IMG/VR virus record: IMGVR_UViG_3300019935_000001
Coordinates: 36,145-100,144 of that record
DNA from: a virus
Lineage: Duplodnaviria; Heunggongvirae; Uroviricota; Caudoviricetes
Length of the DNA stretch: 64,000 nucleotides
Reading direction: 5' to 3' (one strand)
In this document: piece after piece, positions 1,601 through 61,149 of the stretch
How the letters are laid out: every line of letters starts with the position of its first letter
Numbering within the stretch: the stretch's first letter is position 1
Translations under genes and position numbers: made by a program
Notes under the pieces: generated by a model
What the model was told of the DNA's origin: nothing
The model's database searches: none
Seen by the model: only the letters and a program-made list of their open reading frames with translations

Positions 1601-2659
1601 TTACTTCACTTTGGCTTCTGCCAGCTCCAGTAAGACCTTCAGGCAGTCATCTACAGAGACATGCTCAAGCAGATCCTTGCGCAGAGAGATCGTAGGGGTG
1701 CCATTGCTGTCGTTGCGGACAGTGAAGCACTCCTGACCATTCACCTTCACAGTGTTGGTCTTTGAATTTGTCGTACCGGTACGACAATGCTCTGTCACCT
1801 TGGAAACGCTGATCTTCCCATCACGTATTTTATCTGCGATCTCAACCAGCTTTGGTATGTTCTGCTCATTGTCACTGCAAAGGCGAGAGAGCAGTTTAAC
1901 CATCTTCAGGCCAACACCTGACATTGGGCCAATAGCTTCTATCAGGCCCCCTGGTAACTTTGTGTATGCCAGATGTTCGCTAATAACCCGACGATCCCGC
2001 TCAAGAGCCACTGCCAGTGCAGACTGGCTTTTATAGACGCCATCGTTGAGCAGCTTGCTCCAGAACATGGCGTCAGCCCATGCTGATAAGCCATCACGCT
2101 TGTCATTCTCCAGCTGCTGGACACGAGCTGCCTCGGCATCAGTAAGTGTCCGGACATTGGCCGGTACTTTGATTCCAAGCTCCAGACAGGCTTTCCAGCG
2201 ACGACGGCCCGCGATCACTTCAAATGAACCCGGTTGGGACGTGTCGGGGCGCACGATGATCGGAACCTCAATGCCTTCGGCTATAGACTTAACGAACTCG
2301 TCCCAGTTGCCAAACTCAGACTCCGGGCGATTCGCATACTTCCAGGGTTTGATTTTTTCAGCAGGGATCAGCCGAACCAGAAATTTATCATCTGGCTTTT
2401 GTGTGGACTTATCGTAGGTAGTCGCGGGCCTCTTCTTTCCTGAACTGCCAGTCGCGGTAGATTTTTCAGCTGCCTTGTTTTTGGCAGCCCGCGACTCTTC
2501 TTTCTTTGGCGCAGGTGAATCCGTTTCCGCTGCAGGAATTTCCAGCGCAGACAGGTTCAGGCCACTAATATCTGCCTTCGGAGCTTGTCTGTCCCGGAAT
2601 TGTTCGGACTGTGCCAACATCGCACCCATTGCGCCTGTCAGCTTCTTGTCACCAGCCAT
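1601..2659 (-). CDS. parB: ParB partition protein (centromere-binding)
   Basis: 352 aa. ParB box VIAGRRRWKA. Overlaps and is coupled to the upstream ParA gene. Followed by the palindromic parS array. Confidence 0.85.
   Translation of the reverse strand: MAGDKKLTGAMGAMLAQSEQFRDRQAPKADISGLNLSALEIPAAETDSPAPKKEESRAAKNKAAEKSTATGSSGKKRPATTYDKSTQKPDDKFLVRLIPAEKIKPWKYANRPESEFGNWDEFVKSIAEGIEVPIIVRPDTSQPGSFEVIAGRRRWKACLELGIKVPANVRTLTDAEAARVQQLENDKRDGLSAWADAMFWSKLLNDGVYKSQSALAVALERDRRVISEHLAYTKLPGGLIEAIGPMSGVGLKMVKLLSRLCSDNEQNIPKLVEIADKIRDGKISVSKVTEHCRTGTTNSKTNTVKVNGQECFTVRNDSNGTPTISLRKDLLEHVSVDDCLKVLLELAEAKVK
1767..1787. repeat. Fifth parS-like palindrome, embedded in the 3' coding region of parB
   Basis: TTTGTCGTACCGGTACGACAA is identical to the intergenic copies and lies inside the parB C-terminal coding sequence. 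Confidence 0.65.
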
Positions 2660-2662
2660 TTA

Positions 2663-3826
2663 TTAATCCATCCCCCACACTCGGCAATAATCTTCAAAGA
2701 TCTCGCCGTATACCAGGTTGAAGTTATCGATTGCCCGCTTATAGGACTCACGGCTCGACAGAGGCTTGTTAAGGTCATAGACGCTTGTCAGTTGCTCACA
2801 CGCCTTCTCGACCTCTGTGGTCTGCACAATGGCGTTACTGAGGACGTATTCGCCGTATAATTCCCTGATGTCAGACTCGACCTTCCGGGCCGTCTGAGTG
2901 CCGCTGTGTTTCGTGATCAAGATACGCACGTAGTCCATCTTCTTGTCTACTGCATCGAACAGAACAGACAGGGAGTTGGAGAACATCACGAACGAAGCCA
3001 GGTCGTAGGTGGCCGGAGGCACTGGGATAACCATGGCGTCCGCTGCGATCAGAGCATTCGTTGTAAGAGCGCCCATGTTCGGCGGGCAGTCGATCAGAAT
3101 CAGGTCGTATATAGGGCGGAGGGCATCCACGACGCGCTTCAGGCGAAGTAGAGGCTCACCCATCTTGCGGGAATTGTTAACGTCCCGGTTCGGGAGAGCC
3201 AGGTCAAGATCCTGAATGCCCAGGTTAGCCGGAATCAGATGGACATTCGGAACGTAAGTCTGACGGATCACATTCTGCAGTGCTGAGTAGTCCTCAAGAA
3301 GCACTGGGTGAATGGTATCTTCAATTGTCAGTTCCAGGTCCGGGATGAATGGCCCCAGCGAGAAGGTCGCGGATGCTTGAGGGTCGAGATCGATAACCAG
3401 AACCTTCATGCCTTTGTTCGAGGCCATATAGTGAGCCTCATTGACAACGCTCGTGGTTTTGCCAACGCCACCCTTGAAGTTACTTGATGCCTTTACGATG
3501 GCACCAGTACCAGAGGGTTTCTGAAAGCCTGTACCAAGCTGTTCGCGCAGTTCCTGGATACGATGAAGGGTGTAGATCTTGCGACCGTTTGTGCCTTTCG
3601 GCGTGTCCTTGTCGTGTTCTCGGAGCCAAGGTACAGAGCGACCAATCATGGCTGCGGCTTCGGCAACACCATATGTCCGTGGCTCTTTCAGGGTCTTTGG
3701 GGAAACTATCGAGGCACGTAGCTCTTCGAGTTTTGCGCTCCCTTTACGATTGAAGTTGGCAAAAGTCTCGCCCGCGTTTTCCATGGCAAGCCGTGACTTT
3801 ACTGTATCGAAGAGGTCTTCTGACAT
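2663..3826 (-). CDS. parA: ParA partition ATPase, type Ia (extended N-terminal domain)
   Basis: 387 aa. Deviant Walker A KGGVGKTT. About 100-aa N-terminal extension typical of P1 ParA / F SopA-type autoregulatory ParA. Confidence 0.85.
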   Translation of the reverse strand: MSEDLFDTVKSRLAMENAGETFANFNRKGSAKLEELRASIVSPKTLKEPRTYGVAEAAAMIGRSVPWLREHDKDTPKGTNGRKIYTLHRIQELREQLGTGFQKPSGTGAIVKASSNFKGGVGKTTSVVNEAHYMASNKGMKVLVIDLDPQASATFSLGPFIPDLELTIEDTIHPVLLEDYSALQNVIRQTYVPNVHLIPANLGIQDLDLALPNRDVNNSRKMGEPLLRLKRVVDALRPIYDLILIDCPPNMGALTTNALIAADAMVIPVPPATYDLASFVMFSNSLSVLFDAVDKKMDYVRILITKHSGTQTARKVESDIRELYGEYVLSNAIVQTTEVEKACEQLTSVYDLNKPLSSRESYKRAIDNFNLVYGEIFEDYCRVWGMD

Positions 3827-5188: not shown

Positions 5189-7360
5189 ATGAACGGAAAG
5201 CAAAAACGTATACAGGTGATCAGAGAAGCGATGCTCAAGGTGGCCCGAATTATGGCCGGTCGTGGAATCAAGATCACTCAGGCGGGCACTGGTGCTTTTG
5301 TTCGGTATAACAGTCACACTGGCTGTATCGAAAGGATCAACATTCCGATGATCCCGGACGATGCCAGCGAAGATTTGATCCACGCAACGCATGGTTTCCT
5401 GGATCACGAGATCGGGCATGTGCTTTTTACTGAGTACGAATGCTTTGCAAAAGCGAACAGGGCCAAATGCGGCGTCTTGTTCAACATTGCGGAAGACACC
5501 TATGTTGAGCGAATGATGCAGTCCGAGTTCACAGGTTCAATCAGTAACCTGGGCAAGTCATGCCAAATCATGACTGAAAGGTACATTGAGCCGAAGCTCC
5601 GGGAGCTGCTGGCGCACACCGTTCCAACCGAAAAGGATTGGTGGGGGCTGTTATGTGCAACCTCTATCCGGGCAATAGCCGGGCAGGAGCACTTCATCGA
5701 TTACATGAACCAGGACGATAAGTGGGATCTGATCCCGAACTTCGGAAAGGTTCTGCGAAAGCACGAAGCTGAGATCAAGGCGATCAGTAGTTCACAGGAT
5801 TCGTATGAAGTGGCATTGAAGATCAAACAGGACATGCTGGCAGCTGAGCCCGAGGAGCAGGACAGTGAGCCAGACCAGTCCGGCGGTGACGATCAGCAGA
5901 GCGGTGGAGAAGGTAAAGCTGAAAAGCCGCAGGGTGACAGTGAAGGCGAAACCGATGATGGCACCCGAGCAGACGATACCTTCTCGAAAGGTGAAGGTGA
6001 AAGCTCTGGCGAAGAAGAAAAAGATGATTCTTCTTCATCTAGTAGCAACACACAACATAACAAAGACAGTGAAGATGATGACCAGTCAGACGAATCGGAT
6101 GCTGATAGCGATGACTCAAAGGGCGAGTCCGGCAGTGCTGGCTCCGATAGCGCTGAAGAAGGTGATGGTGAATCCGACGAAGGCCCTGGTGCCGGTGATA
6201 GTTCGGGGGATGGTTCAGACGATGATGAAGACTCTGAATCAGAAGGCAGATCAGGGGGTGCAGGCTCGTCAGCTGGCGGCGATGACGCAGGTGAAGGCGG
6301 CGATAGCGAGATTGATGCAGATGATGTGATTAATGACCCGATGGCTCCGTTGCTGACTGAATCAGAGGTGGAGAGCATGGGTGAAGACTTCGACGATGCG
6401 ATGACAAAGGTTATCGGCGAGATGTCAGCTGATGCACTTAGAGGCTCTGAAGAATATGTGCCGTTCACACGCGACTGGGACGTTATCGAGCCACTGAAGC
6501 TATCAAGAAACTACGATCCGAATCTGGCCGACAAGGTTGCTGATACAGTCAATTACATGGTTGGCACGATGGCGAAAAGTCTGGAGCGTGCATTTCGTGC
6601 AGCCAACCGATCCCGCTGGGAAGGCGGTAAGAAGTCTGGCCGTATTAACAGCGCCGCACTATCCCGATTACTGGCAAACGACCCACGGGTGATGCGTACC
6701 CGCCAGGAGATGAAGACTCGTGATGTAGCTGTTTCTCTATTGGTGGACTGCTCCGGCTCTATGAGTGGGAAGAAGATGGAGGTTGCGTGTCAGACTGCGT
6801 GGGCGCTGGGCGAGGTGCTATCAAAGCTGAATTTGCCTTGTGAGATACTGGGGTTCACAACCTGCAGAATCAAAAACCAGTTCGACCATTTGGAGAAGGA
6901 GCTGGCTGATGTATTCCGTGACGGTACAGGTCAGCAATTCAGCAGGTTCGAGCCGATCTATATACCTATATTCAAATCATTTGATGAGCGGTTTGGTACG
7001 GCAGCTAAAGCACGCCTTGCGGATGCCGCATACGAGGGTATGCGGCGGAAGATGAACTGCAATATTGATGGCGAATCTCTGCTGTACGCAGCCGAGCGCC
7101 TGCGGAAGCGCCCGGAGCCAGGAAAGGTAATGATTGTGTTGTCAGACGGAGCCCCGGCCGGTGTAGGTAAACAACTTGAAGCTCACCTGAAGAAGGTGGT
7201 CAAAGATCTCAATACCGAAGGCATCAACACTGTCGGGATCGGCATCATGAGTCAGGCGGTGAGATCTTACTACCCCCGCCATGTAATCCTGAACAAAGTA
7301 GAGGACCTCCCAAAGGCAGTTGTAGGGGAGCTGCGGGAGGCAATTCTGGCGAAAGACTGA
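5189..7360 (+). CDS. CobT-like protein with C-terminal VWA domain and long acidic low-complexity linker
   Basis: 723 aa. N-terminal CobT-like region. D/E/S-rich low-complexity segment (nt about 5850-6330). C-terminal VWA domain with MIDAS motif DCSGSMSG. Paired with a CobS-like AAA ATPase. Confidence 0.75.
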   Translation: MNGKQKRIQVIREAMLKVARIMAGRGIKITQAGTGAFVRYNSHTGCIERINIPMIPDDASEDLIHATHGFLDHEIGHVLFTEYECFAKANRAKCGVLFNIAEDTYVERMMQSEFTGSISNLGKSCQIMTERYIEPKLRELLAHTVPTEKDWWGLLCATSIRAIAGQEHFIDYMNQDDKWDLIPNFGKVLRKHEAEIKAISSSQDSYEVALKIKQDMLAAEPEEQDSEPDQSGGDDQQSGGEGKAEKPQGDSEGETDDGTRADDTFSKGEGESSGEEEKDDSSSSSSNTQHNKDSEDDDQSDESDADSDDSKGESGSAGSDSAEEGDGESDEGPGAGDSSGDGSDDDEDSESEGRSGGAGSSAGGDDAGEGGDSEIDADDVINDPMAPLLTESEVESMGEDFDDAMTKVIGEMSADALRGSEEYVPFTRDWDVIEPLKLSRNYDPNLADKVADTVNYMVGTMAKSLERAFRAANRSRWEGGKKSGRINSAALSRLLANDPRVMRTRQEMKTRDVAVSLLVDCSGSMSGKKMEVACQTAWALGEVLSKLNLPCEILGFTTCRIKNQFDHLEKELADVFRDGTGQQFSRFEPIYIPIFKSFDERFGTAAKARLADAAYEGMRRKMNCNIDGESLLYAAERLRKRPEPGKVMIVLSDGAPAGVGKQLEAHLKKVVKDLNTEGINTVGIGIMSQAVRSYYPRHVILNKVEDLPKAVVGELREAILAKD

Positions 7361-7471: not shown

Positions 7472-8683
7472 ATGACGACCAAAGCTATCAACTGCGAAAT
7501 CTGTGGCGCATCGGTTCACACGATCAAAAAGCACCTGCGTGACGAGCACGAAGAGTGGACTCTGGAAAAGTATCAGGAAGAGTTCCCGGACGCTCCAATC
7601 TTCTCTGAGCTGGCGCTGCGGAAGATTGAAGAGGCCCGCAGTAGAACAAAAGCATCGGTCACGCAACTGGCAGAAGCTAATCCGGCTCAGCAGATCATCG
7701 AGCAGCAGAGCGTTAAGGTCGGAAAGATCGAGATGGGCAAAGCGTTCCGTCTGGGCAACACGAAAGCGACAGTCTCCCAAAAGTCTGGAAACCCGATCAT
7801 GATCACTCAGCTGCAGCGGGATAGCGTCAACTCGCCAGATATGATCCCGGAGTTCGATGATGGCTATATCTTCGACATTGAAGTCCTGAAAACGCTGTTG
7901 ATGGGCATCGAGCTGAGCATTCCTACTTACCTGTATGGTCATGCCGGTTTGGGAAAATCAACCATCTTTGAGCAGATTGCATCTGTCACCAACCGCCCGA
8001 TTCGTCGTGTGCAGCATACGGTGAATACAGAGGAATCTCACATCGTTGGTCAGTACGTTGTGAATCATGTGGAAGACCCGAAGACGGGCGAGCTGAAGGC
8101 GAAGACTGAGTTCCAGCTCGGCGATCTGCCGCTGGCGATGATGAACGGTGAGATCTTCCTTGCCGACGAGTACGACCGTGCCTATCCGTCTGTACTGTCT
8201 GTATACCAGGCAGTGCTGGAGGGTAAGCCCCTGCATATCAAGGATGCACCCGAAGAGCTGCGCGTGATCAAACCACATCCGCAATTCAGATTCGTAGCGA
8301 CCGGCAACACAAACGGCGCAGGTGACGACACCGGCTTGTATCAGGCTACGGTCGTACAGGACGCTGCGACATTTGAACGCTTTGGAATCGTTGAACGCAT
8401 CGACTACATGCCGAAGAAGCAGGAGGTTGCAATACTCCGAGCCAAGACCGGTTTGCTGGAAGAAGACGCCTCGGACATCGTGAAGTTTGCTACGCATATC
8501 CGGAAAGACGCCTTCCCGAACGAAGTGTCTCTGACCATCGGCCCGCGTGTGCTACTGAATATTGCCCGCGTCGGTATCGCCCGATTCAACACGCTGAAAG
8601 GTATCGAGGTTGCATACGCGAACCGACTGCCGGAAGCCGAGCGCCAGGCTGCTATGAACTATGCGCAGCGGATCTTCGGCTAA
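7472..8683 (+). CDS. CobS-like / MoxR-family AAA+ ATPase
   Basis: 403 aa. Walker A GHAGLGKST and MoxR-like architecture. Conserved leader ACACACTAGAGAC before the ATG. Confidence 0.75.
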   Translation: MTTKAINCEICGASVHTIKKHLRDEHEEWTLEKYQEEFPDAPIFSELALRKIEEARSRTKASVTQLAEANPAQQIIEQQSVKVGKIEMGKAFRLGNTKATVSQKSGNPIMITQLQRDSVNSPDMIPEFDDGYIFDIEVLKTLLMGIELSIPTYLYGHAGLGKSTIFEQIASVTNRPIRRVQHTVNTEESHIVGQYVVNHVEDPKTGELKAKTEFQLGDLPLAMMNGEIFLADEYDRAYPSVLSVYQAVLEGKPLHIKDAPEELRVIKPHPQFRFVATGNTNGAGDDTGLYQATVVQDAATFERFGIVERIDYMPKKQEVAILRAKTGLLEEDASDIVKFATHIRKDAFPNEVSLTIGPRVLLNIARVGIARFNTLKGIEVAYANRLPEAERQAAMNYAQRIFG

Positions 8684-8693
8684 GGAGCGCGTC

Positions 8694-9269
8694 ATGACAC
8701 GACCACAAAATGCACCAGGCTGTTACGGCGTGGGCATTGCCTCCATGAAGAGTCCTGTCTGTAAAGAATGCGCAGCTCGTGAGGGTTGCGCAGAACGAGC
8801 TGTAGAGAACCTGCAGCTCGCTTCCGAGACGGTTGATGTAACCGATTACCTCGCAGTACATGGCCTGGCGCCAAAGCATAAGGGCGAGATGCCCCGCCAC
8901 TATCTAGCAAAGGTGAAAGTCCGGAAGGCGACTCAGCAGGAGCTGAGCATGTTCACAACTATGCCCGCAAAGGCTCGATCCATTGCAGAGTCATTGGTGA
9001 AGAAGAACATCTGTCTTCACACGAGCCTATCAACGAACCAGAACCCCTTTAACACAAACAAACCTCAGTACCTGAAGCCCGTATTCGACATGATACTGAA
9101 CTCCGGGGCGGTGTCCCGCCGCTCGATTATCGACGCGATCCGCTTATCTGGCAGCTCTGCTGCAACTCAGCGATCTCAGCTGTCAACTGCAATAGGGCTA
9201 CTGGAAGGCACCGGAGTCCTGATCAGAGATGGCGCTGAAAATTACAAGGTAGCAAACCGTGACATTTAA
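8694..9269 (+). CDS. Hypothetical protein with N-terminal Cys cluster (zinc-ribbon-like) and C-terminal wHTH-like region
   Basis: Start moved to ATG 8694 (AGGAG RBS at 8682-8686). Cys pairs CYGVG..CKEC..C. Confidence 0.45.
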   Translation: MTRPQNAPGCYGVGIASMKSPVCKECAAREGCAERAVENLQLASETVDVTDYLAVHGLAPKHKGEMPRHYLAKVKVRKATQQELSMFTTMPAKARSIAESLVKKNICLHTSLSTNQNPFNTNKPQYLKPVFDMILNSGAVSRRSIIDAIRLSGSSAATQRSQLSTAIGLLEGTGVLIRDGAENYKVANRDI

Positions 9270-12200
9270 CCTGACGCACTACATTGGTTGCCGCACCCAC
9301 TTCAGTCTGGGCGAAAGCATCCTGTCCCCTAAGCGGGCCGTTAATGAGCTGTCCGGCATTGCGCCGAGCATGACGATTACCGACCTGAACTCTGTAAATG
9401 CTCTGCCGAAGTCCTACAAGGAGGCGAAGAGCGACGATTTGAATCTGAATTTTGGCGCTGTCTTTAAGGTCGTTGATGACCTGGAGTGGCGGAAGCCAAA
9501 GAAGGGTGAGAAAAAGACAGTTAACCATTTCTTCTCACCTCGACTGATCGCCAAGAATGTAGATGGCATGAAGGACATCATGCACTTGCTGTCCGTATCG
9601 AATGATGCAGACCACTTCTACATGACACCACAATGCTCCATTGAGGAGCTGATCGAGGCAGCTTCACGCGGCAACGTGTACGTGACCACCGGGGACACGG
9701 ATTCGCTGTTTGCGCACCCGGAATACAGAACAAAGCTAGTGCAGCTGGTACGCGCTCTGAAAGCGTCTGATTTGCTGTTTGAAGTCGTTCCAGTCTGCAC
9801 GGCATATTATGACCGTCTTAACGAAACGACGATCAGAGTTGCAGAGAGACTGTCTGCAGCCATGATCGTCACGCGACCGATCTATTACAGCTCCAGCATG
9901 AGCGGCACCCGCAACGCCATGTACTGCGTGAAGAATCGTAGCCAGGTAACAGAGCGCTGGCGCTCCGAGCCTGCAGTGAACAACCTGCACCCCCTGGTTG
10001 CTGCAGACATGGAGCAGGAGCTGAGCAACCTGATAGATCGAATGGTGCTGCGCGACCTGGATCGTGATGCTGTGACTGAAGCCCTGCACCGCGCTGTCGA
10101 TACCACCAACGCTCTGCCTGAAAAGCTGAACTACGCCTGGGAACCATATGACATCTGTCTACCTTCCATGAGTGATGATCCGTTTGGTGGGCTGGTAGAG
10201 ATCGTAAAGCAAGGCTGGACAGACCGGATCGAAAAGGTGGTATACGGGTTCCAACCAGATCAGAGCCAGCTACCGGAGTATCGGGAGCGCCTGAAGTACG
10301 AACTATCTGTCTTGAAGCGCATGGGCTTTGAGAACTACTTCCTTCTGGTGCATCAGGTGGTGTCGCAGGCTAAATCCATGAACATCATGGTAGGCCCGGG
10401 ACGAGGATCTGTAGGTGGATCACTCGTCGCATTTTTGATGGGGATCACCGATGTTGACCCTATCCGCTTTGGCCTGATCTTTGAACGATTCATCAACCCG
10501 GATCGACTCGACCTTCCTGATGCCGACCTCGACTTTATGTCCTCCCGCCGTGAAGACATCATTAAATGGTTGGTCAAAGAGTATGGCCAGGATTATGTGT
10601 GTGGCATCAGTAACTACGGTGAGCTTGGTGCATCTTCGGCACTAAGGAGCGCAGGTAAGATCCACGGCCTGACCGAAACCGATGTTTCATGCTCCAAACA
10701 GGTGCCGAAAGAGCACGGTTCCAGCAAGTCACTGGAAGAAGCGAGAGAAGAGGTTCCGGCAATCAAGGTCTTCGCAGATAAGCACCCGGAAGTGTGGGCA
10801 GACGCCTGCAACCTGCAGGGCATCTTCAACGTTTACGGCCAGCACGCTGCAGGTGTTGTAGTGGCCGGCGAACCCATCATTGAACGTGCTGTGGTTGAAG
10901 TCCGCAAAGGCGGTCAGCTCTGCAACTGGGACAAAAGCGTGGTCGAAGAGTTCGGCCTGGTTAAGCTCGATGTGTTGGGCCTGAGTAACCTGGATGTACT
11001 GCGCCTGGCAAAGGACTACATCAAAGAGCGTCATGGCGTAGCAATCGACTACGAGGATGTTCCGCTGGATGATCCGGACGTTCTGGCTGCATTCGGTGAG
11101 GGCAAGACAAACGCCGTGTTCCAGTTCGAGTCTGGCGGTATGAAGGGCCTGCTGAAGTCACTGGCAGAGTCCGGAAGCCTGACGTTTGAAGACATCGCAG
11201 CGGCAACCGCTCTATTCCGTCCGGGCCCAATAGACGCTGGCCTGATGGATCAGTATGTCGCCATCAAAAACGGCAACATGACAGAGACGTACCCGCATCC
11301 GATTTGTGAAGGCGCGCTGCGAGAAACATACGGGGTAATGGTCTATCAGGAGCAGGTAATGCAGATCGCTCGGGATCTGTCGGGCTTCTCGATGGCTGAA
11401 GCTGACAAGCTGCGTAAAGCGATCGGTAAGAAAGACGCCGACCTGATGGCATCAATGGGCGAGAAGTTCGTGCAGGGTGCTCAGGAGTCGGGCATGGCCG
11501 AAGTATCTGCACAGGCATTGTGGGATGACATCCTCGGCTTCGCGGCTTACTCCTTCAACAAGTCTCACTCTGTCGCCTACACGATGATCTCCTACCTGAC
11601 GATGTGGCTGAAGGTAAAGTACCCGGCAGAGTTCTTTGCCGCCTCAATGTCGATCCTGAAAGAAGAGAAGCTGCCTGGCCTGGTGCGTGACTGTACCGAA
11701 GCTGGCTTGATCGTAGTGCCCCCGGACATTAACCGCTCCACTGACAGGTTCGAGATTGGCTATGACGGTGCCAGACAGTGTGATTCTCTGATTATCCCGT
11801 TCCAGCGATTGAAGGGTCTATCCGAGAAGGCGAGCGCGGCGATTGTCGAGGCCCGTGAGAAGCGGAAAGAAGAGCAGGGCGATAGTCGCTTTGTTTCAAA
11901 GAATGACTTCCTGGGCTATGTGGTGAAGCGGGTGTGCAATGTCCGGGTACAAAGTGCCCTGGATGCGGTCGGTGCTTTCGCGGAAATCGAAGGTCAGATT
12001 CCAGCTCTGCACCCGGATCGAATCAAAGATCAGAAGACCCTGCTACCGGGACTGATCGCCAGCAATGTGAAGGCGGACAGAAAGATCGACCTGTCACCTT
12101 TCGTTCGGCGGGAGCTGGTCGGGCTGATGCAGGAAGCAAAAGACTGCTGCGAAACCTTCAAGGGTGAAACCGTTGTCGGCCCAGCAATGGCTAAAGGTCG

Positions 12201-12660
12201 CGTACCGAAATTCATGGTCGTGATGGATGCACCGAACTGGGGCGAGAAAGATGCTGGCGTCATGTTGAAGGGAAAAGCCAGCAGAGACGTGCTGACTGCC
12301 CTGGACGAAGCCGGGCTCAAGCCTAGCGAGGGTTACTTTACGGCTCTGTCGAAAATGATGAAGCCGAAAGGTGAGAAGCAGATACCACAGCAAATGCTGA
12401 TCGACTTTGGCCCTATCCTGGCGCAAGAGATCGAGCTGCTGAAGCCACCGGTGATTGTGGCGCTCGGAACGGCTGCGGCCCGCTTCCTTCTGCCTGATCT
12501 GAAAGGTGGTTGGGAAGAGATCGCAGGTACAAGCCACTACGATGCCAAGCGGGACTGCACGGTGGTGATCGGGTGCAACCCGTCAATGGTGTATTTCGAT
12601 CCCGACCGGATCAACATTATCGTGGACGCATTTGAAAAAGCACGGGAGATGACAGAATGA
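9259..12660 (+). CDS. dnaE: DNA polymerase III alpha-subunit-like replicative polymerase (DnaE family) with C-terminal UDG-superfamily-like domain
   Basis: 1133 aa. N-terminal PHP motif HYIGCRTHFSLGESIL. Palm/fingers region GRGSVGGSLVAFLMGITDVDPIRFGLIFERFINPDR. The last roughly 170 aa align to family-4/5 uracil-DNA glycosylases with altered motifs (MDAPN for GEGPG; NPS for HPS). GTG start. Confidence 0.85.
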   Translation: MTFNLTHYIGCRTHFSLGESILSPKRAVNELSGIAPSMTITDLNSVNALPKSYKEAKSDDLNLNFGAVFKVVDDLEWRKPKKGEKKTVNHFFSPRLIAKNVDGMKDIMHLLSVSNDADHFYMTPQCSIEELIEAASRGNVYVTTGDTDSLFAHPEYRTKLVQLVRALKASDLLFEVVPVCTAYYDRLNETTIRVAERLSAAMIVTRPIYYSSSMSGTRNAMYCVKNRSQVTERWRSEPAVNNLHPLVAADMEQELSNLIDRMVLRDLDRDAVTEALHRAVDTTNALPEKLNYAWEPYDICLPSMSDDPFGGLVEIVKQGWTDRIEKVVYGFQPDQSQLPEYRERLKYELSVLKRMGFENYFLLVHQVVSQAKSMNIMVGPGRGSVGGSLVAFLMGITDVDPIRFGLIFERFINPDRLDLPDADLDFMSSRREDIIKWLVKEYGQDYVCGISNYGELGASSALRSAGKIHGLTETDVSCSKQVPKEHGSSKSLEEAREEVPAIKVFADKHPEVWADACNLQGIFNVYGQHAAGVVVAGEPIIERAVVEVRKGGQLCNWDKSVVEEFGLVKLDVLGLSNLDVLRLAKDYIKERHGVAIDYEDVPLDDPDVLAAFGEGKTNAVFQFESGGMKGLLKSLAESGSLTFEDIAAATALFRPGPIDAGLMDQYVAIKNGNMTETYPHPICEGALRETYGVMVYQEQVMQIARDLSGFSMAEADKLRKAIGKKDADLMASMGEKFVQGAQESGMAEVSAQALWDDILGFAAYSFNKSHSVAYTMISYLTMWLKVKYPAEFFAASMSILKEEKLPGLVRDCTEAGLIVVPPDINRSTDRFEIGYDGARQCDSLIIPFQRLKGLSEKASAAIVEAREKRKEEQGDSRFVSKNDFLGYVVKRVCNVRVQSALDAVGAFAEIEGQIPALHPDRIKDQKTLLPGLIASNVKADRKIDLSPFVRRELVGLMQEAKDCCETFKGETVVGPAMAKGRVPKFMVVMDAPNWGEKDAGVMLKGKASRDVLTALDEAGLKPSEGYFTALSKMMKPKGEKQIPQQMLIDFGPILAQEIELLKPPVIVALGTAAARFLLPDLKGGWEEIAGTSHYDAKRDCTVVIGCNPSMVYFDPDRINIIVDAFEKAREMTE

Positions 12661-12905
12661 AGATCTATGTGAAAATTGTAGTAATGATCCTGCTGTTTGT
12701 GTCAATGGTATCATCTCTACAGCTCAGTATTGCCGTGGCCACGTTTGTGGCATCGGGTATTGTAAGCGGGTTGGTATTTGGCGTGATGCCGGGCGGTGAC
12801 AACCGATACCTTTGCAAGTTTATAGTGTTGTGCGCAGCTGTAATGGCTTACTGGGGCATGATTGTTACCTTGGTTATTCTCGCTTCTTTATACCTAAATA
12901 AATAA
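12657..12905 (+). CDS. Small integral membrane protein
   Basis: 82 aa, two to three hydrophobic helices. ATGA start/stop overlap with dnaE. Confidence 0.45.
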   Translation: MKIYVKIVVMILLFVSMVSSLQLSIAVATFVASGIVSGLVFGVMPGGDNRYLCKFIVLCAAVMAYWGMIVTLVILASLYLNK

Positions 12906-13695: not shown

Positions 13696-14607
13696 ATGTC
13701 TAAAATGTCCATCAAAGACCTGATCGCTCAAAAACAGAAAGACATCTCCGCTAAGAAAGGTCGTGCTCGCACCTGGAAGCCGAAGCCGGGTAAATCCCGT
13801 GTTCGCATTCTGCCAAGCTGGCGCGGTCTGGACGATCCTCACTTCTTCCACGACTTCGGTGTTCACTTCGTTAAGAACGAAAAGAAAGAAACCGATGCAA
13901 TCTACCTGTGTACTGAAGCGACTTTCGGCAAAGAGTGTCCAGTATGTCAGGCGATTGGCCAGGGCATCAAAAACTCTAATGATGATGACCAGATCAAGCT
14001 GCTGAAGTCTGCGAACGCCGGTCAGCGTTACCTGATGAACGTACTGGTTCTGTCCGAAGATGACATTAAGAGCGAGCCGCAGATCATGGAAGTGGGCACC
14101 ACAGTGTTCGAGTCCATCTGTGAAATCATCTCTGAGTACGACGACATTACCAAGCTGGAAGGCGGTGTAGATCTGGTGATCACACGCGAAGGCTCCGGTC
14201 AGTTCGATACCAAGTACACAGTAATGCCTGCTCCGAAGTCTGTGAAGGTGCCGGAATCTGTGTATCAGAAAGTCCACAACCTGGATGAATACGTTGCTCA
14301 GGAGAACGAAGAGAGCCGTAACAAGGCTGTTGCTGCAGTAAGTCGTGCAGCTGGCTTCATGCTCGCAAGCGACGACTCATTCGGTGGCCCAGCTAATGCA
14401 CTGCCAGGCGGCAAAACAGCTGCACTGCCAGACGCTGAGATGGGCTCTGTAATGGACGACATCGATCTGGATGGCATCGAAGATGCTGAAGTTATCGAGT
14501 CTCCTGCTGCAGAAGCGGTGACTGAGCCGATGGGTACATCAAGCGAGGAGGTTGCAACCGACTTCGATGATGATGAACTGGACGATCTGCTGGCTGACTT
14601 GGGCTAA
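13696..14607 (+). CDS. Single-stranded DNA-binding protein, T4 gp32-like
   Basis: 303 aa. Zn-binding CPVCQ plus His. RVRILPSWRG and YLMNVLVL parallel gp32 AVIRFLPS and YWANILVV. Strongly acidic C-terminal tail DFDDDELDDLLADLG. Confidence 0.7.
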   Translation: MSKMSIKDLIAQKQKDISAKKGRARTWKPKPGKSRVRILPSWRGLDDPHFFHDFGVHFVKNEKKETDAIYLCTEATFGKECPVCQAIGQGIKNSNDDDQIKLLKSANAGQRYLMNVLVLSEDDIKSEPQIMEVGTTVFESICEIISEYDDITKLEGGVDLVITREGSGQFDTKYTVMPAPKSVKVPESVYQKVHNLDEYVAQENEESRNKAVAAVSRAAGFMLASDDSFGGPANALPGGKTAALPDAEMGSVMDDIDLDGIEDAEVIESPAAEAVTEPMGTSSEEVATDFDDDELDDLLADLG

Positions 14608-17075: not shown

Positions 17076-18368
17076 GTGTTCACCGTTCTGTGTCACCGTT
17101 TTATTCACAGGTCGACATACTGGTCGATTCTGTCAGGGAAGTGGATGCTCAGCTGAGACAGCGTGAGGTTCCAGTTCTGCACTGGATGCGTCCACTTCTC
17201 TGAGGCCCTCAATATGCCCGCATAGAGCAGCTTCAGCAGGCTGTTTTCATTGGCGAAGCCACCCTTGGTTTTGGTCAGTTTCCGGAACTGACGGTGCACG
17301 GCCTCAACTGCATTGGTCGTGTAGATCGCACGCCTTACCTGTTCCGGGTACTTGAAGTACACCGACAGGTTCTCCCACTTGCTACGCCATGACTTGATGA
17401 CCAGCGGGTACTGTTTCCCCCACTTTGCCTCCAGCTCGTCCAGCGCCTGCTCTGCGGCGTTTCGCGTCGCCGCCTTGTAGACGCATTTCAGATCCACCAT
17501 AAATGCCTTCTGATTCTTGCTGGCGACGTACTTCATGGAGTTGCGGATCTGGTGAACAATACACAGCTGTACTTCTGTTTCCGGATAGATGCTTTCGATC
17601 GCTTCAGGAAAGCCTTTCAGACCATCCACAGAGGCAATAAGGATGTCTTTCAGACCTCGATTCTGCAGATCTGTCAGGACGCTGAGCCAGTAATGTGCAC
17701 CTTCATTTTCAGACAGATAGAGTCCCAGCAGCTCCTTCTTACCTTCGATGGTTAGCCCAAGAATGGTGTACACCGCTTTGGAGATGAAACGACCATTCTC
17801 TTTCACTTTGTAGTGAATGGCATCCAGCCAGACAAAAGGGTATACCGGCTCCAGATCACGCTCTTGCCAGGCTTTAAGCTCCGGCACCAGGCGATCAGTT
17901 ACGGCGTTAATCATGCCGTTGGAGACGCTCATACCGTACATTTCACAGATATGGTCACGGATGTTCTGGTAACTGCTGCCTAATGCAAACAGAGACAGTA
18001 TCTTGCCTTCCATTTCATCAGTCAGACGGGTCTGATATTTCCTGACAGTCTGGGGCTCAAATGAGCCATTGCGATCTCTCGGCGTCTCCAGCTCGAACTC
18101 GCCAGCAGCGGTTTTGACTGTTTTCTTTGAGGTGCCATTTTTCCGATTGGCGGCCGGATTTTCTGCAAGGTGCTCATCAATCTCTGCACCCAATGCGGCT
18201 TCAGTGATCTGTTTGATCAGTGGTGTCAGGAGGCCATCCTTGCCATTGAGGTTCTGTCCAGATTGCAGCGCTTTGGCAAACGCCTGAATATCGATTTCGT
18301 ACTTGTCAGACATGATGTGTCGCTCCCCGTTTCACTCAGTGTAGGAAACGACACAGAACTCTGAACAC
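17076..18368 (-). mobile_element. IS256-family insertion sequence (about 1.29 kb)
   Basis: Mutator/IS256-type transposase flanked by imperfect terminal inverted repeats (17076 GTGTTCACCGTTCTGTGTCACC... vs reverse complement of 18368 GTGTTCAGAGTTCTGTGTCGTT...; 17 of the first 19 positions identical). No target-site duplication could be identified. Confidence 0.7.
17105..18313 (-). CDS. IS256-family (mutator-type) transposase
   Basis: 402 aa spanning nearly the whole element. Typical IS256 transposase conserved blocks (..WLDAIHYKVKENGR.., ..CIVHQIRNSMKYV.., YTTNAVE). Confidence 0.9.
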   Translation of the reverse strand: MSDKYEIDIQAFAKALQSGQNLNGKDGLLTPLIKQITEAALGAEIDEHLAENPAANRKNGTSKKTVKTAAGEFELETPRDRNGSFEPQTVRKYQTRLTDEMEGKILSLFALGSSYQNIRDHICEMYGMSVSNGMINAVTDRLVPELKAWQERDLEPVYPFVWLDAIHYKVKENGRFISKAVYTILGLTIEGKKELLGLYLSENEGAHYWLSVLTDLQNRGLKDILIASVDGLKGFPEAIESIYPETEVQLCIVHQIRNSMKYVASKNQKAFMVDLKCVYKAATRNAAEQALDELEAKWGKQYPLVIKSWRSKWENLSVYFKYPEQVRRAIYTTNAVEAVHRQFRKLTKTKGGFANENSLLKLLYAGILRASEKWTHPVQNWNLTLSQLSIHFPDRIDQYVDL

Positions 18369-25003: not shown

Positions 25004-25393
25004 CTATGACTTGTCGTTGACCCCGAAGAGACCTTTAAGGATGAAGCCAACCAGCCCGACGACGATTGTCATCGAGGTTAGCATAGCTAAGGCTACGGTC
25101 TCAGGTATGGGTAAGTTAAGCTTCACCTGATGGTTCATGTAATAGAGCAGGCCAAACACTACAACCACGCACCACCAACACATGAAAAGAAATACGTGTC
25201 TTGCGAGATCTTCTTTCAATCGATTGTTCGTATGCTGCCCTTCAGCATGAGCGCGTGTAAGCGCTGCATTCGCTTTGGCCTGCACATAGTTGTAATCATG
25301 CCCTTGCTCGTTAAGTACAGACCCTTCTGTTTCCTGGACCTGTCGAGGGCTGTTGGAGCCCGCTCTGCCTCCTGCAAATGGCCCTTCTGTCAC
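25004..25393 (-). CDS. Small membrane protein with two C-terminal TM helices; candidate toxin partner of the Panacea-domain protein
   Basis: 129 aa. Translationally coupled to the upstream Panacea gene by a 4-nt overlap. Hydrophobic helices FLFMCWWCVVVVFGLLYY and LAMLTSMTIVVGLVGFIL. Confidence 0.45.
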   Translation of the reverse strand: MTEGPFAGGRAGSNSPRQVQETEGSVLNEQGHDYNYVQAKANAALTRAHAEGQHTNNRLKEDLARHVFLFMCWWCVVVVFGLLYYMNHQVKLNLPIPETVALAMLTSMTIVVGLVGFILKGLFGVNDKS

Positions 25394-25920
25394 AGTCCTT
25401 TCACGCTCTTTGGGTTTTCTACAACTTTCTGAAAGTGGTCACGAATTAGGGCGTTTGGTATATTCGCAAACGGGCGATCTTTTCCACCATTCTTGTTCCA
25501 AACTTCGTCCCACGGTGTGTCAGCCCGGTGGGTTAGATCCACGAGATCCATAGCCTCCTGTTCACCATAAAGATCAAGAACGCCTCTGATGACCGTCATA
25601 TCATCCTGACTGAAATGGACGGAAGGGGGCCCAAATTCACGGATCTTGCTTGAGCCATGATGCTTGTATTCATGGTAGATGGCTTGAATCACAGGCCCGA
25701 ATTTCCAAGCCTGGGTGTCATCCATGTACAAAGCTCTTCCTCTCCAGCCAAGCATATAGCCGTGCGCAATGTACGTCAGTTTTTGCAGCTGAAGGTTTGA
25801 AAGGAAAATACTCTTCTGTGCTGCCACATGAAGCATCATCTGAGCCACATCGGTGGCATTGTGCAAAATGCCGGTTTCCTGCTCGACAGCGGAGCTGGCT
25901 GTGCTGGATGTATTTGTCAT
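25390..25920 (-). CDS. Panacea-domain (DUF4065, SocA/PanA-like) putative antitoxin
   Basis: 176 aa. LQKLTYIAHGYMLGWRGRALYMDDTQAWKFGPVIQAIYHEYKHHG matches the Panacea domain core (KLxYxAxG..W..GPV...Y..Y). Confidence 0.65.
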   Translation of the reverse strand: MTNTSSTASSAVEQETGILHNATDVAQMMLHVAAQKSIFLSNLQLQKLTYIAHGYMLGWRGRALYMDDTQAWKFGPVIQAIYHEYKHHGSSKIREFGPPSVHFSQDDMTVIRGVLDLYGEQEAMDLVDLTHRADTPWDEVWNKNGGKDRPFANIPNALIRDHFQKVVENPKSVKGL

Positions 25921-27401: not shown

Positions 27402-29669
27402 ATGAGTCACACACATGGGAGACAAACTTTGACCATCAATGTAGTAAAACGCGATGGCCGTATTGAGCCGCTGGATCTGGAAAAGATACACCGCGTTTTG
27501 AATTGGGCGGCCCTGGGTCTGAACGTATCCGTATCTGAAGTAGAGCTGCGCTCCCAGCTGCAGTTCATGGACGGAATCAAAACTGAAGACATCCATGCAA
27601 CACTGATCAAAACCGCTGCAGATCTGATCTCCGAAGAGGCTCCGGACTACCAGTGGCTCGCTGCGCGTCTGAAGATTTACCACATGCGCAAGCAAGCGTT
27701 CGGTCGTTTCACTCCACCGCAGCTGATTAACCACGTACAGGACAATACCCGCAAGGGCCTGTATGACCCGCACCTGCTTGAAGACTATGACCTGCTGGAA
27801 TGGGCAGCGATGGAATCTATGCTCGACCACGAGCGCGACATGACCTTTGCATACGGTGCCACTGTACAGCTGCGTGAGAAGTACCTGGTTCAGAACCGTG
27901 TAACCGGTCAACTGTACGAAAGCCCGCAGATTGCATACATGCTGATTGCTGCTGCGCTGCACTCTAAAGAAGACAAAGCGGTTCGTATGCAGAAGATTCG
28001 CCGCTTCTATGACGCTGCATCAATGCACAAGCTGTCATTGCCGACACCGATCATGGCCGGTGTACGTACTCCGACCCGTCAGTTCAGCTCCTGCGTGAAG
28101 ATTGAGATTGGTGACAGTCTTGATTCTATCAACGGTGGCGTTGGCGCAATCGTGAAGTACATCAGCCAGCGGGCCGGTATTGGCATTGGTGCCGGTGCTC
28201 TGCGTGGTAAGGGTGCAGAGATCCGCAACGGCGAGGCGTATCATACTGGCGCCATCCCGTTCTACAAGCACTTCCAGACTGCTGTTAAGTCCTGCTCCCA
28301 GGGCGGTGTCCGCGGTGGCTCTGCTACAGTCTTCTACCCGCTGTGGACATGGGAAATTGAGTCTCTGCTGGTACTGAAGAACAACCGGGGCACCGAAGAG
28401 AACCGTGTTCGCCACGTTGACTACGGTGTTCAGTTGAACCGCCTGATGTACGACCGCCTGATCAATGGCGAAAATATCACCCTGTTCAGCATGGAGCAGG
28501 TGCCGGATCTACTGGGTGCCTTCTACGCAGATCAGCCTGAGTTCGAGCGCCTGTATGTTCAGTACGAAAACGACCCGGACGTTCGCAAGCATTCGGTGCC
28601 AGCAGTAGAGCTGTTCGGCAGCCTGGCGGCAGAGCGAGCACAAACTGGCCGAATCTACATTCAGAATATTGACCACTGTAATACCCACGGCGCATTCGAT
28701 CCGACGGTGGCACCGGTCAAACAGTCCAACCTGTGCATGGAGATTGCACTGCCTACCAAGCCGCTGGATGCGTTCGACATGAGCAAGGGCGAGATTGCCC
28801 TGTGTACCCTGTTGGCGTTCAACCTGGGTGCGCTTGAGAGCCTGGACGAGCTGGAGGACCTGTCAGAAATTGCAGTGAACGCCCTCGACAACCTGCTCGA
28901 CTATCAGAACTACCCACACCCGGCTGCTCTGCACGCCAAAGGCCGCCGTGCCCTGGGTATCGGTATTTCCAATTTCGCATACTACCTGGCAAAGAATGGC
29001 TGCAAGTACAGCGATGGCTCCGGTATCGATCTGACTCACCGCACTATGGAGGCAATTCAGTATTACCTGCTGAAAGCGTCCAACAAACTGGCAGAAGAGC
29101 GTGGCGCATGTGATTTGTTCCACGAGACACGCTATGCAAATGGCGAGCTGCCGATTGATCATTACCGCAAAGACCTGGATGAAGTCTGCAAAACACCACT
29201 GATGATGCCGTGGGAAGGTCTGCGCGCTGGCATTAAGCAGTTCGGTTTGCGCAACAGTACCTTGACAGCTCTCATGCCGTGCGAAACCTCGTCTCAGATC
29301 ACCAACTCCACCAATGGCATTGAGCCGCCGCGTGGCTTTGTGAGTGTGAAGAGCAGCAAGGATGGCACATTCAAGCAGGTGGTGCCGGAGTACGAGCGGC
29401 TAAAAGGCCAGTACGAGTTGCTGTGGGACATTCCGAACAACACCGGCTACCTGAATCTGGTTGCAGTAATGAGTAAGTTCGTGGATCAGGCTATTTCTGC
29501 GAACACCAACTATGACCCGAAGCGCTTCCCCGGTGAAAAGGTTCCGATGCGCGCCATCGTTGGCGACATTCTGGTCGCCTATAAGTACGGCGTTAAGAAC
29601 CTGTACTACCACAACACCCGCGATGGTGCCGGTGAAGAAGTAGACGCCTGCGATAACTGCAAAGTCTGA
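27402..29669 (+). CDS. nrdA: Ribonucleoside-diphosphate reductase class Ia alpha subunit
   Basis: Very high similarity to E. coli NrdA from the N-terminal ATP-cone onward (KRDGRIEPLDLEKIHRVLNWAA..VELRSQLQFMDGIKT). The true start may be the TTG at 27429, directly after the conserved leader. Confidence 0.9.
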   Translation: MSHTHGRQTLTINVVKRDGRIEPLDLEKIHRVLNWAALGLNVSVSEVELRSQLQFMDGIKTEDIHATLIKTAADLISEEAPDYQWLAARLKIYHMRKQAFGRFTPPQLINHVQDNTRKGLYDPHLLEDYDLLEWAAMESMLDHERDMTFAYGATVQLREKYLVQNRVTGQLYESPQIAYMLIAAALHSKEDKAVRMQKIRRFYDAASMHKLSLPTPIMAGVRTPTRQFSSCVKIEIGDSLDSINGGVGAIVKYISQRAGIGIGAGALRGKGAEIRNGEAYHTGAIPFYKHFQTAVKSCSQGGVRGGSATVFYPLWTWEIESLLVLKNNRGTEENRVRHVDYGVQLNRLMYDRLINGENITLFSMEQVPDLLGAFYADQPEFERLYVQYENDPDVRKHSVPAVELFGSLAAERAQTGRIYIQNIDHCNTHGAFDPTVAPVKQSNLCMEIALPTKPLDAFDMSKGEIALCTLLAFNLGALESLDELEDLSEIAVNALDNLLDYQNYPHPAALHAKGRRALGIGISNFAYYLAKNGCKYSDGSGIDLTHRTMEAIQYYLLKASNKLAEERGACDLFHETRYANGELPIDHYRKDLDEVCKTPLMMPWEGLRAGIKQFGLRNSTLTALMPCETSSQITNSTNGIEPPRGFVSVKSSKDGTFKQVVPEYERLKGQYELLWDIPNNTGYLNLVAVMSKFVDQAISANTNYDPKRFPGEKVPMRAIVGDILVAYKYGVKNLYYHNTRDGAGEEVDACDNCKV

Positions 29670-29722
29670 TAACAACTGGGGGGGGGGCTTAGCGCCCCCA
29701 CCTTCCACACTAGAGAAGATCA

Positions 29723-34098: not shown

Positions 34099-34110
34099 GA
34101 GACAAACGAC

Positions 34111-35387: not shown

Positions 35388-35837
35388 ATGACCGCACAAG
35401 CTATATGGGATGTACCGGATGTCGGCGAGGAGCTGAATAGGAAGGTGCTGGAGACGCTCGACTATCTGGAAAAGAAGAAGAGCAGCGGGGAAATACTGGA
35501 GCGGGACTTCTGTGTTGCCCTGCTAACGCTCAATCAAGTCGCTCTGGGCCTGTACGACCGGGATCTTGCGGAGTGGGTTAGCACGTACCTTTCTGAGAAT
35601 GGGCGTGTACTGAAGCCGATCACCGCCCGCCGTGTATTCGCAGCACCGGCTGCCACCTTTGTCGTTGAATACGAAACAGGCTCTGCTGAGCTGAGAATCT
35701 TCCGGGTTCAGGATGGCGCAGTGAAGCTGCTGAAGCACCTGGATTCATCTGACCAGATAGACGGCATCCGCATCGCCCATAGCAAGTACGTTCGCACAGT
35801 GCGGGAACTTTCAGACAAATATACGGAGGTTCGATAA
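35388..35837 (+). CDS. Hypothetical protein
   Basis: 149 aa. Confidence 0.5.
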   Translation: MTAQAIWDVPDVGEELNRKVLETLDYLEKKKSSGEILERDFCVALLTLNQVALGLYDRDLAEWVSTYLSENGRVLKPITARRVFAAPAATFVVEYETGSAELRIFRVQDGAVKLLKHLDSSDQIDGIRIAHSKYVRTVRELSDKYTEVR

Positions 35838-36448
35838 TGCGCGAACTGATTGTAAATGTTACCGATATTGAAACTACTGGCCTGAAGCAGGAAGACGGCC
35901 ATCGCATCATTGAGGTTGCGATGGCCCTGCTGAAGATCCAGTTCAACGACGACAACACCTTTGCTGGCTATAAGCGAGTAGGCAAAACCTGGTGTCAGCG
36001 AATCAATCCGTGCCGGAACATCGATGCAGCTGCACAGGCTGTTCACGGTATCAGCTTATCGAGTCTGCGCGGCGAGCCGGTCTGGGAAGATGTAGCCGGG
36101 CGTGTTGCAAAGATCCTGGCGGCGAGTGATGTCGCGGTGGCTCACAATGTTGAGTTTGATATGCCGTTCATTGCTCTGGAGCTGGTACGCATTGGCCAAG
36201 AGATCCCGGACTTCGAAACCTTCTGTACTTTGGAAGGCGGGCGATCTGCTACGGGCCTGGGCACAGTACCTAGCCTGCAGAAGCTATGTTGGGCCATGGG
36301 TGTGCCGTACAACCCGGATGAAGCCCACGCTGCTGATTACGATGTGGACTGCACAGTTGATGCGCTGGTCAAGGGTTTGAATCTGGGATACTTCAGCTTC
36401 GCTGATGTCCTGAACGAAAAGTATGGTGAAGCCAGTGCTGAAGTTTGA
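35837..36448 (+). CDS. DnaQ-like 3'-5' exonuclease (DEDDh, PolIII epsilon-like)
   Basis: Exo I DIETTGL, Exo II AHNVEFDMPF, Exo III HAADYDVDCTVDAL. Confidence 0.8.
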   Translation: MRELIVNVTDIETTGLKQEDGHRIIEVAMALLKIQFNDDNTFAGYKRVGKTWCQRINPCRNIDAAAQAVHGISLSSLRGEPVWEDVAGRVAKILAASDVAVAHNVEFDMPFIALELVRIGQEIPDFETFCTLEGGRSATGLGTVPSLQKLCWAMGVPYNPDEAHAADYDVDCTVDALVKGLNLGYFSFADVLNEKYGEASAEV

Positions 36449-60919: not shown

Positions 60920-61149
60920 TTCACCACCTTCACCAGCTGATCGAAGCCGCCGATGAACTCGTCATCAACGAAGACTGCAGGGAACGTACTGAAGCCCGGT
61001 GTCTTCTGCTGCAGCTCTTCCAGCTGATAGTCTGAGCCCAGCTGCAGGTATGTGTAGTCGAGGTCGCGGATGTCGCAGACCTGCTTTGCATTGTCACAGT
61101 ACGGGCAAGAGGTCTTGCCGTAGATTTCAATCTTCATATGGTTCCTCAA
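60916..61149 (-). CDS. Glutaredoxin (NrdH/Grx-like)
   Basis: 77 aa. Active-site CPYC near the N-terminus (KIEIYGKTSCPYCDNAK). Confidence 0.75.
   Translation of the reverse strand: MRNHMKIEIYGKTSCPYCDNAKQVCDIRDLDYTYLQLGSDYQLEELQQKTPGFSTFPAVFVDDEFIGGFDQLVKVVK

Follow-up and report, generated by a model that had tools for sequence, protein, structure and literature searches.

A diverged family-4 uracil-DNA glycosylase fold in place of the OB and tau-binding domains of a phage-plasmid DnaE

How does a C-family DNA polymerase work without its OB and tau-binding domains, and what does a remodelled glycosylase fold contribute to it? The question is raised by a dnaE-like gene in a 64,000-nucleotide stretch of tailed-phage DNA (Caudoviricetes; IMG/VR record IMGVR_UViG_3300019935_000001, positions 36,145 to 100,144; hereafter the window, with coordinates counted from its first letter). 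In its product (the query), the OB fold and the tau-binding domain of cellular DnaE are replaced by a domain descended from family-4 uracil-DNA glycosylases (UDG). The gene and its parts are as follows:

9259..12660, + strand: dnaE-like gene of 1133 amino acids (GTG start; range includes the stop codon), with PHP domain, Pol3 core, fingers, helix-hairpin-helix (HhH) region, linker and UDG-like domain
9289..9720, + strand: PHP domain, residues 11-154, weakly conserved (Pfam PF02811, 31.5 bits)
10195..11490, + strand: polymerase core and fingers, residues 313-744 (Pfam PF07733, 233.8 bits; PF17657, 178.8 bits)
11704..11991, + strand: (HhH)2 / beta-binding-domain region, residues 816-911, ending in VGAF (Pfam PF14579, 41.7 bits)
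11992..12093, + strand: linker, residues 912-945, with a candidate internal beta-clamp-binding motif (from conservation and position)
12094..12657, + strand: diverged family-4 UDG-fold domain, residues 946-1133

In the open reading frame (ORF) list of the window, the dnaE-like gene is one uninterrupted, unsplit ORF. Pfam placed PHP at residues 11-154, DNA_pol3_alpha at 313-574, the finger domain at 577-744, HHH_6 at 816-911 and the UDG superfamily at 984-1110; the NCBIfam model of the PolIII alpha superfamily (TIGR00594) scored 620.8 bits (cut-off 434.35), and phrog_405, 'DNA polymerase', matched residues 9-1130. With PHP, Pol3 core, fingers and (HhH)2 all found and the superfamily cut-off reached, the protein was assigned to the DnaE-type C-family polymerases. 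The polymerase active-site motifs are intact (PDADLDF at 420-426, HAAGVVV at 529-535 and KLDVLGL at 569-575), and we take PDADLDF and KLDVLGL to hold the counterparts of the Asp triad of E. coli alpha (D401, D403, D555). The PHP N-terminus reads THYIGCRTHFS, versus HxHxHS in canonical domains, and the N-terminal 314 residues gave no match to PDB sequences with phmmer. By the same method, the (HhH)2 region was aligned with residues 795-856 of E. coli alpha and 852-944 of Taq alpha.

Neither the OB fold (PF01336) nor the C-terminal domain (PF20914) was matched by Pfam in the DnaE-like protein, and the score of the cellular DnaE1 equivalog PRK05673 stayed below its cut-off (660.9 versus 1002 bits), with an alignment that runs no further than profile position 886 of 1146; the protein lacks the OB and tau-binding domains, as a preliminary description of this DNA, made from the sequence alone, had proposed. 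The 221 residues that remain after the HhH domain are made up of the 34-residue linker and the UDG fold, with nothing left over. PF03167 scored 31.6 bits on the full protein and 35.2 bits on the isolated C-terminus (last 233 residues), above the gathering cut-off of 24.3. In the predicted structure the C-terminal domain has an alpha/beta fold with a four-stranded parallel beta-sheet, which superposes on solved UDGs, and in a phmmer search against all PDB sequences the tail matched the family-4 UDG of T. thermophilus (1ui0, E 9.2e-10). A search of the BFVD fold library returned stand-alone phage UDGs and PolA-UDG fusions. The early assignment to the UDG superfamily, closest to family 4, is upheld by these results, and the block-by-block pairing of the tail with family-4 UDGs that had been drawn up with it recurs in the same pairs in the alignment to 1ui0. 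The domain does lie in the roughly 170 C-terminal residues where it had been placed, its start being about residue 946 (nt 12094), about 20 residues ahead of the 12151 given at first. That the UDG likeness arose by chance or from low complexity, or that assembly or a frameshift produced the fusion as an artefact, has a negligible probability: nothing was found in its favour, and it was ruled out by the single ORF, the Pfam match, the span of phrog_405 and the phmmer match in the PDB.

For the motif comparison, the query and 20 relatives were aligned with stand-alone family-4 UDGs, and the motifs then tallied over 219 UDG-domain sequences; conservation was ranked among 197 columns of an alignment of 152 derived-class sequences (60% non-redundant). 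The mixed alignment gave the following motif regions:

12211..12237, + strand: motif A region FMVVMDAPN, residues 985-993, with D990 for the Glu of GE(A/G)PG and P992 retained
12331..12369, + strand: GYFTALSKMMKPK, residues 1025-1037, counterpart of vYiTNivKCRPP, with Y1026, T1028 and K1032 retained
12562..12588, + strand: motif B region VVIGCNPSM, residues 1102-1110, with N1107 for the His of HP(S/A) and P1108 retained

Motif A as MDAPN and motif B with Asn in place of His, both proposed beforehand, were confirmed in this alignment; the epithet 'MUG/TDG-like' that had accompanied them is right for the single Asn of motif B and wrong otherwise, as fold and sequence derive from family 4. Across the 219 sequences, motif A takes the form x-D-x-P-[N/S/T] (D in 193, P in 196), and the motif-B residue is N in 148, S in 36 and T in 14, His being confined to the canonical controls and 4 others. 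The uracil-reading Asn (of Y-I-T-N) is Ala1029 in the query and Ser, Ala, Thr or Gly in 198 sequences, with Asn in the canonical controls only, and the stacking Phe (of P-F-x-G) is M1002 in the query and Met, Leu or Phe over the family. The Fe-S cysteine of KCRPP is absent throughout the derived class (Met1033 in the query), and the other three are kept in about 55-60% of sequences (Cys1 124/219, Cys2 122/219, Cys4 129/219); the query retains the adjacent C963 and C964 only (KDCCE, window 12139-12153), with Met and Phe at the third and fourth ligand positions. Stand-alone family-4 UDGs (1ui0, T. maritima 1l9g/1vk2, S. tokodaii 4zby) have GE(A/G)PG, HP(S/A) and all four Fe-S cysteines, whereas the query, fused to a polymerase, has neither GE(A/G)PG nor the catalytic His of HP(S/A), nor the reading Asn, the stacking Phe or the four [4Fe-4S] cysteines, and stays below the NCBIfam cut-offs of the family. 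The scaffold of the pocket ranks high in conservation (Y1026 rank 1, P1108 rank 3, T1028 rank 5, K1032 rank 7, P992 rank 10, D990 rank 12, N1107 rank 26), while the uracil-specific positions are relaxed (rank 95 for 1029 and rank 49 for 1002). Judged from these alignments, the pocket is remodelled and selected, not randomly decayed, and what appears new here is a derived pocket scaffold (D990, P992, Y1026, T1028, K1032, N1107, P1108) that is highly conserved while the contacts specific to uracil are relaxed. UdgX of M. smegmatis, a family-4-derived protein that forms a covalent bond with the abasic (AP) site, retains GEQPG and HPS along with its Fe-S cluster, and carries the insertion loop KRRIH with His109; the KRRIH motif was not seen in the query or the mixed alignment, in which no search aimed at it was made.

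Between the HhH domain and the UDG fold, the linker of the query carries the motif R921..D-Q925-K-T-L-L-P-G-L932 (nt 12028-12054), which has the form R921..D-Q925-x-E-L-[L/M]-P-G-L over the family. Among 79 sequences Q925 is conserved in 71, L/F/M928 in 68 and L/M/I929 in 71, and Q-x-x-[LMFI]-[LMFI] occurs downstream of GAF in 138 of 199 long members. The internal clamp-binding motif of E. coli alpha is 920-QADMF-924 (PMC3201878), and the linker motif lies at the equivalent place, with Q925-K-T-L-L 18 residues past GAF. When the HhH-linker stretch was compared with the PDB (phmmer), the E. coli and Taq alignments stopped at GAF, short of the clamp-binding motif, which no alignment covers; the assignment as clamp-binding is therefore made by pattern and position.

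The architecture is not new. A DnaE variant with a UDG domain in place of the OB and C-terminal domains was described from Y. pestis and S. enterica plasmids, with SSU5 gp052 as a further member and replicons of the SSU5, pMT1 and pHCM2 types as its carriers (Timinskas et al., 2014, NAR 42:1393; PMC3919608), and is abundant in databases (about 1000 sequenced plasmids); it shares with the query the order PHP-Pol3-(HhH)2-PF03167, in which PF03167 replaces the OB and C-terminal domains. The C-terminal region of the query is about 29.5% identical to that of the dnaE of SSU5 and of the Y. pestis and Salmonella plasmids (tblastn E 5e-19 for SSU5 and 2e-18 for Y. pestis plasmids), and the fusion is common to all of these, an outcome of a check that the preliminary description had proposed for homologous phage-plasmid DnaE proteins. 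The query forms a separate, more UDG-like branch (P992 kept, UDG detectable by Pfam), as against a more degenerate SSU5 subgroup. No functional study of a C-family polymerase-UDG fusion was found in the literature.

An initial word-indexed homolog search gave 4 matches and was repeated with a family profile, which returned 1171 proteins at E <= 1e-5. In an exhaustive comparison of the last 233 residues with 1.84 billion cluster representatives (clusters at 50% identity), 372 clusters matched at E <= 1e-3 and 125 at E <= 1e-10, most of them proteins of about 1100 amino acids in which the match is C-terminal. By tblastn, the module was found in 31 phage records (Pseudomonas nickie/ZY21, Rhizobium RHEph10, Stenotrophomonas, SSU5-like) and in 986 plasmid records, mostly non-mobilizable and of about 100-115 kb, from Klebsiella, Escherichia, Acinetobacter, Enterobacter, Yersinia and Salmonella. 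The best identities were 46% to Aeromonas plasmids and 70-72% to metagenomic fragments, so that the query gene represents a new lineage of a widespread family. Compared by megablast, the gene had no match among phages, and the plasmid matches of a 20-kb stretch came down to an IS256 element and a short segment of the dnaE core; the replicon itself is thus not in the phage and plasmid collections searched. In neighbour-joining (NJ) trees the derived UDG class is monophyletic (88 of 100 bootstraps).

Many relatives have dnaE split into two genes, the split point corresponding to about 11450-11490 of the window (residues about 732-744). The C-terminal protein of the split pair, of about 390 amino acids (HhH and UDG), opens with a conserved 'MK(I/V)K..L.DGM' and has an FNKSH motif that begins at residue 33-35 in 59 of 75 cases; such proteins stand on contigs of up to 100-216 kb and are named 'uracil-DNA glycosylase family protein' or 'helix-hairpin-helix domain-containing protein' at NCBI. 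One relative, P0078 (residues 726-1133), has a LAGLIDADG intein at LRK^C...HN^CMGKKD, at about 11410-11420 of the window and about 20 residues upstream of the split point. A further protein, P0150, has an intein in its Pol3 domain (residues about 367-763).

A second class of fusion occurs on the same polymerase. The metagenomic proteins P0149, P0150, P0139 and P0153 are PolIII alpha subunits with a canonical C-terminal family-4 UDG, in the order PHP-Pol3-finger-HhH-UDG, the UDG domains of P0149 and P0150 scoring 82 and 73 bits. They share with the query the domain order and the absence of the OB domain, and differ from it in keeping GEAPG (TDSPT in P0150), KCRPP, HPA and all four cysteines, in their PHP domains (86-131 bits, versus 31.5 in the query) and in UDG domains that are nearer to the stand-alone family-4 enzymes than those of the query's class. 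A joint clade of the derived and canonical PolIII alpha-UDG proteins appeared in 1 of 100 NJ bootstraps, on saturated distances. P0150 combines the motif-A Asp with HPA and KC, from which the change of Glu to Asp is compatible with an otherwise canonical site. Among the A-family polymerases of phages, the UDG domains of N4-like PolA are without catalytic residues, and those of SPO1-like and SP15-like PolA retain them; the two UDG classes on PolIII alpha mirror this division. Other modules were also observed around this position in two metagenomic relatives: P0226 has an S1 domain ahead of HhH-UDG, and P0239 has a gp32-like domain for binding single-stranded DNA (ssDNA) after HhH, in the place of the UDG, either as a fusion or as a gene call merged with the adjacent gene for SSB, the protein that binds ssDNA.

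The reading that we favour, tentatively and as one that falls a little short of probable, is that the domain is a template-strand DNA-binding, base-inspecting module which replaces the OB fold. In the chain, the UDG domain follows directly on HhH and linker, where cellular DnaE has its OB fold, and in the Taq PolIII alpha structure of Wing, Bailey and Steitz from 2008 (PDB 3E0D) the OB domain reportedly adjoins the single-stranded template. The UDG domain would take this position, by the unpaired template immediately in front of the polymerase active site; as a read-ahead inspection module it would bind that strand there, with bases flipped into the remodelled pocket. A host beta clamp would probably confer processivity through the conserved Q-x-E-L-L motif of the linker. 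Since the modules seen at this position (the cellular OB, the canonical UDG and the gp32-like domain of P0239) all bind ssDNA or DNA, binding of the template fits them. As the contacts specific to uracil are all changed (Asn to Ala/Ser/Thr/Gly, Phe to Met/Leu, His to Asn), the specificity of the pocket would probably go beyond, or differ from, strict uracil.

Counterparts of such a role would be the UDG fused to A-family polymerases in phages and the UDG D4/E4 in the B-family holoenzymes of poxviruses. Analogy also favours, short of proof, the roles tentatively suggested in the preliminary description, namely reading or excluding bases or serving as a DNA-binding appendage. In YerA41 and phiLo PolA the UDG domains read template dU five nucleotides ahead of the active site and, as seen by electron cryo-microscopy and in assays, make abasic sites, at a location that matches Mpox E4; that of YerA41 excises dU despite very degenerate motifs (GYVN / MYSLM) (Missoury et al., 2025, bioRxiv; 10.1101/2025.03.26.645540). 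These phage enzymes are of family A with an N-terminal UDG, whereas the query is of family C with a C-terminal one, and in the poxvirus holoenzyme (E9/F8 - A20/A22 - D4/E4) the UDG, D4, is of family-1 type and a separate subunit, bridged by A20 to a B-family polymerase. Within the inspection reading, base excision and mere binding or sensing seem to us about evenly balanced: the conserved Asp at the catalytic position, the intermediate P0150 and the precedent of YerA41 would speak for catalysis, and the changed uracil contacts, the lost Fe-S ligands and the precedent of the N4-like enzymes against it. The more specific proposal that the derived domain is a functional read-ahead module of new specificity, which flips and then excises or senses a base besides or instead of uracil, perhaps another deaminated or a 5-substituted base, is possible, if on the unlikely side.

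Several observations weigh against inspection of the template. The family-4 models match the tail at E 1e-10 and score well under their cut-offs (TIGR00758, 41.0 versus 125.3 bits; NF040953, 35.3 versus 250); at each of the four uracil-contacting positions of canonical family-4 enzymes the query has another residue, and its Fe-S ligands are lost; and dead UDG domains on polymerases have a precedent in N4-like PolA. Folding alone could account for the conservation of many residues (Pro, Gly, Tyr, Thr). In the clinically common SSU5 subgroup, Ala stands at the position of P992 and the UDG goes undetected by Pfam. The linker, finally, is predicted at about 80 in the local distance difference test (pLDDT), hence not disordered, which is atypical of a clamp-binding peptide.

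The lost uracil-specific contacts would also suit a DNA-binding processivity appendage that acts independently of sequence, with neither base inspection nor catalysis, a role suggested for the UDG domains of SPO1 and T5 PolA and demonstrated for vaccinia D4 with A20. The role of intrinsic processivity factor was proposed for polymerase-fused UDG domains by comparison with D4-A20 (Kazlauskas and Venclovas, 2011; PMC3201878), the conserved basic residues K1032, K1035, K1082 and R941 could contact the backbone, and no clamp or clamp-loader gene was seen among the scanned ORFs of the 64-kb window. The search for a clamp, however, covered 64 kb of a genome of about 100 kb or more, the conserved clamp-binding-like motif of the linker suggests processivity by way of the beta clamp, and the acid at the catalytic position and the polar residue of motif B are conserved (ranks 12 and 26), neither of which backbone binding needs; we consider this role unlikely. 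Conservation bears likewise on whether the fold serves instead as a protein-interaction hub in place of the tau-binding domain, as a tether to the acidic tail of SSB, the replicative helicase or the DnaQ-like exonuclease: it peaks in the motifs of DNA contact and base pocket, with no other obvious surface, and the precedent (3ufm) belongs to family 1, not family 4, which leaves a hub quite unlikely.

A fourth account takes the domain as an evolutionary relic, an ancestral active UDG fusion that became inactive and was kept to stabilise the polymerase fold. The canonical PolIII alpha-UDG fusions could be its ancestral state, the dead domains of N4-like PolA its parallel, and the Fe-S ligands look lost stepwise, with three of four cysteines in about 55-60% of sequences and a CC remnant in the query. 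Yet the derived signature (D-x-P, T-[SATG], N-P and newly conserved K, Y and D) is kept in members about 40% identical to the query, across several bacterial orders and about 1000 plasmids, and in the split genes; its maintenance across divergent members points to purifying selection on specific residues, and a relic appears improbable.

The window comes from an SSU5-type phage-plasmid and has genes for Rep, ParB, ParA, CobT-like and CobS-like proteins, DnaE, SSB, a 5'-3' exonuclease and a RecA/UvsX-like recombinase, and further SbcD/SbcC, RuvC, NrdA/NrdB, ThyA, DHFR, a MazG-like hydrolase, a DnaQ/RNase T exonuclease and a helicase. The neighbourhood of dnaE is syntenic with that of SSU5, the order CobT-like, CobS-like, small ORF, dnaE, SSB, exonuclease, recombinase being identical, and the window has ParA, ParB and Rep besides. 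The features around the polymerase gene and elsewhere in the window are:

1601-3826: ParA/ParB pair
5189-7360, + strand: CobT-like (VWA) gene, directly upstream in the dnaE module
7472-8683, + strand: CobS-like (AAA+) gene, directly upstream of dnaE
12657-12905, + strand: very hydrophobic ORF of 82 amino acids, its ATG overlapping the dnaE stop codon (ATGA)
13696..14607, + strand: phage SSB with acidic C-terminal tail (..DFDDDELDDLLADLG; phrog_1192, E 8e-65)
17105-18313, - strand: IS256-family transposase, between the recombinase and SbcD genes (phrog_2331, E 6e-150)
25390-25920, - strand: SocA/Panacea-domain antitoxin-like gene (PF13274, 59.5 bits)
27402-30835: NrdA/NrdB
32546-35288, + strand: ThyA (331.8 bits), DHFR, MazG-like PRA-PH pyrophosphohydrolase and a small P-loop protein, downstream of NrdA/NrdB
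35837..36448, + strand: DnaQ/RNase T-type 3'-5' exonuclease, candidate proofreading subunit in trans (Pfam PF00929, 73.6 bits)
61146-62858: helicase
62962-63648, + strand: second ParB_N-domain gene, besides the ParA/ParB pair

The separate DnaQ/RNase T exonuclease, together with the weak PHP domain of the query, suggests proofreading in trans, which this exonuclease would probably provide. From the presence of ThyA, DHFR and the MazG-like hydrolase, ordinary thymine DNA is expected; no classical dUTPase was seen among the scanned ORFs of the window, which is part of a larger genome, nor any AP endonuclease or ligase. The 82-residue ORF probably specifies a small membrane protein whose translation is coupled to that of dnaE. 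In SSU5 the CobT-like/CobS-like pair occupies the same place (SSU5_049, SSU5_050) and is annotated 'porphyrin biosynthesis'. The AAA-type Pfam matches of the small P-loop protein are weak and below the cut-off. The IS256 element, with 81% DNA identity to an element of a Photobacterium plasmid, hints at a marine Vibrionaceae-like host.

SSU5-type phage-plasmids are common in Klebsiella, E. coli, Acinetobacter, Enterobacter, Salmonella and Y. pestis, and this unusual DnaE replicates them all. If the domain inspects the template, the coupling of a UDG fold to a replicase would have arisen independently in the polymerase families A, B and C, and the C family would be the third with an integrated template scanner, after family A (phiLo/YerA41) and family B (poxvirus; archaeal uracil pocket). 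The D-x-P / N-P class would then be a new UDG family, with a new active-site signature, carried on about 1000 clinical phage-plasmids. If the domain is only a tether to DNA or protein, it would explain how SSU5-type replicons do without tau.

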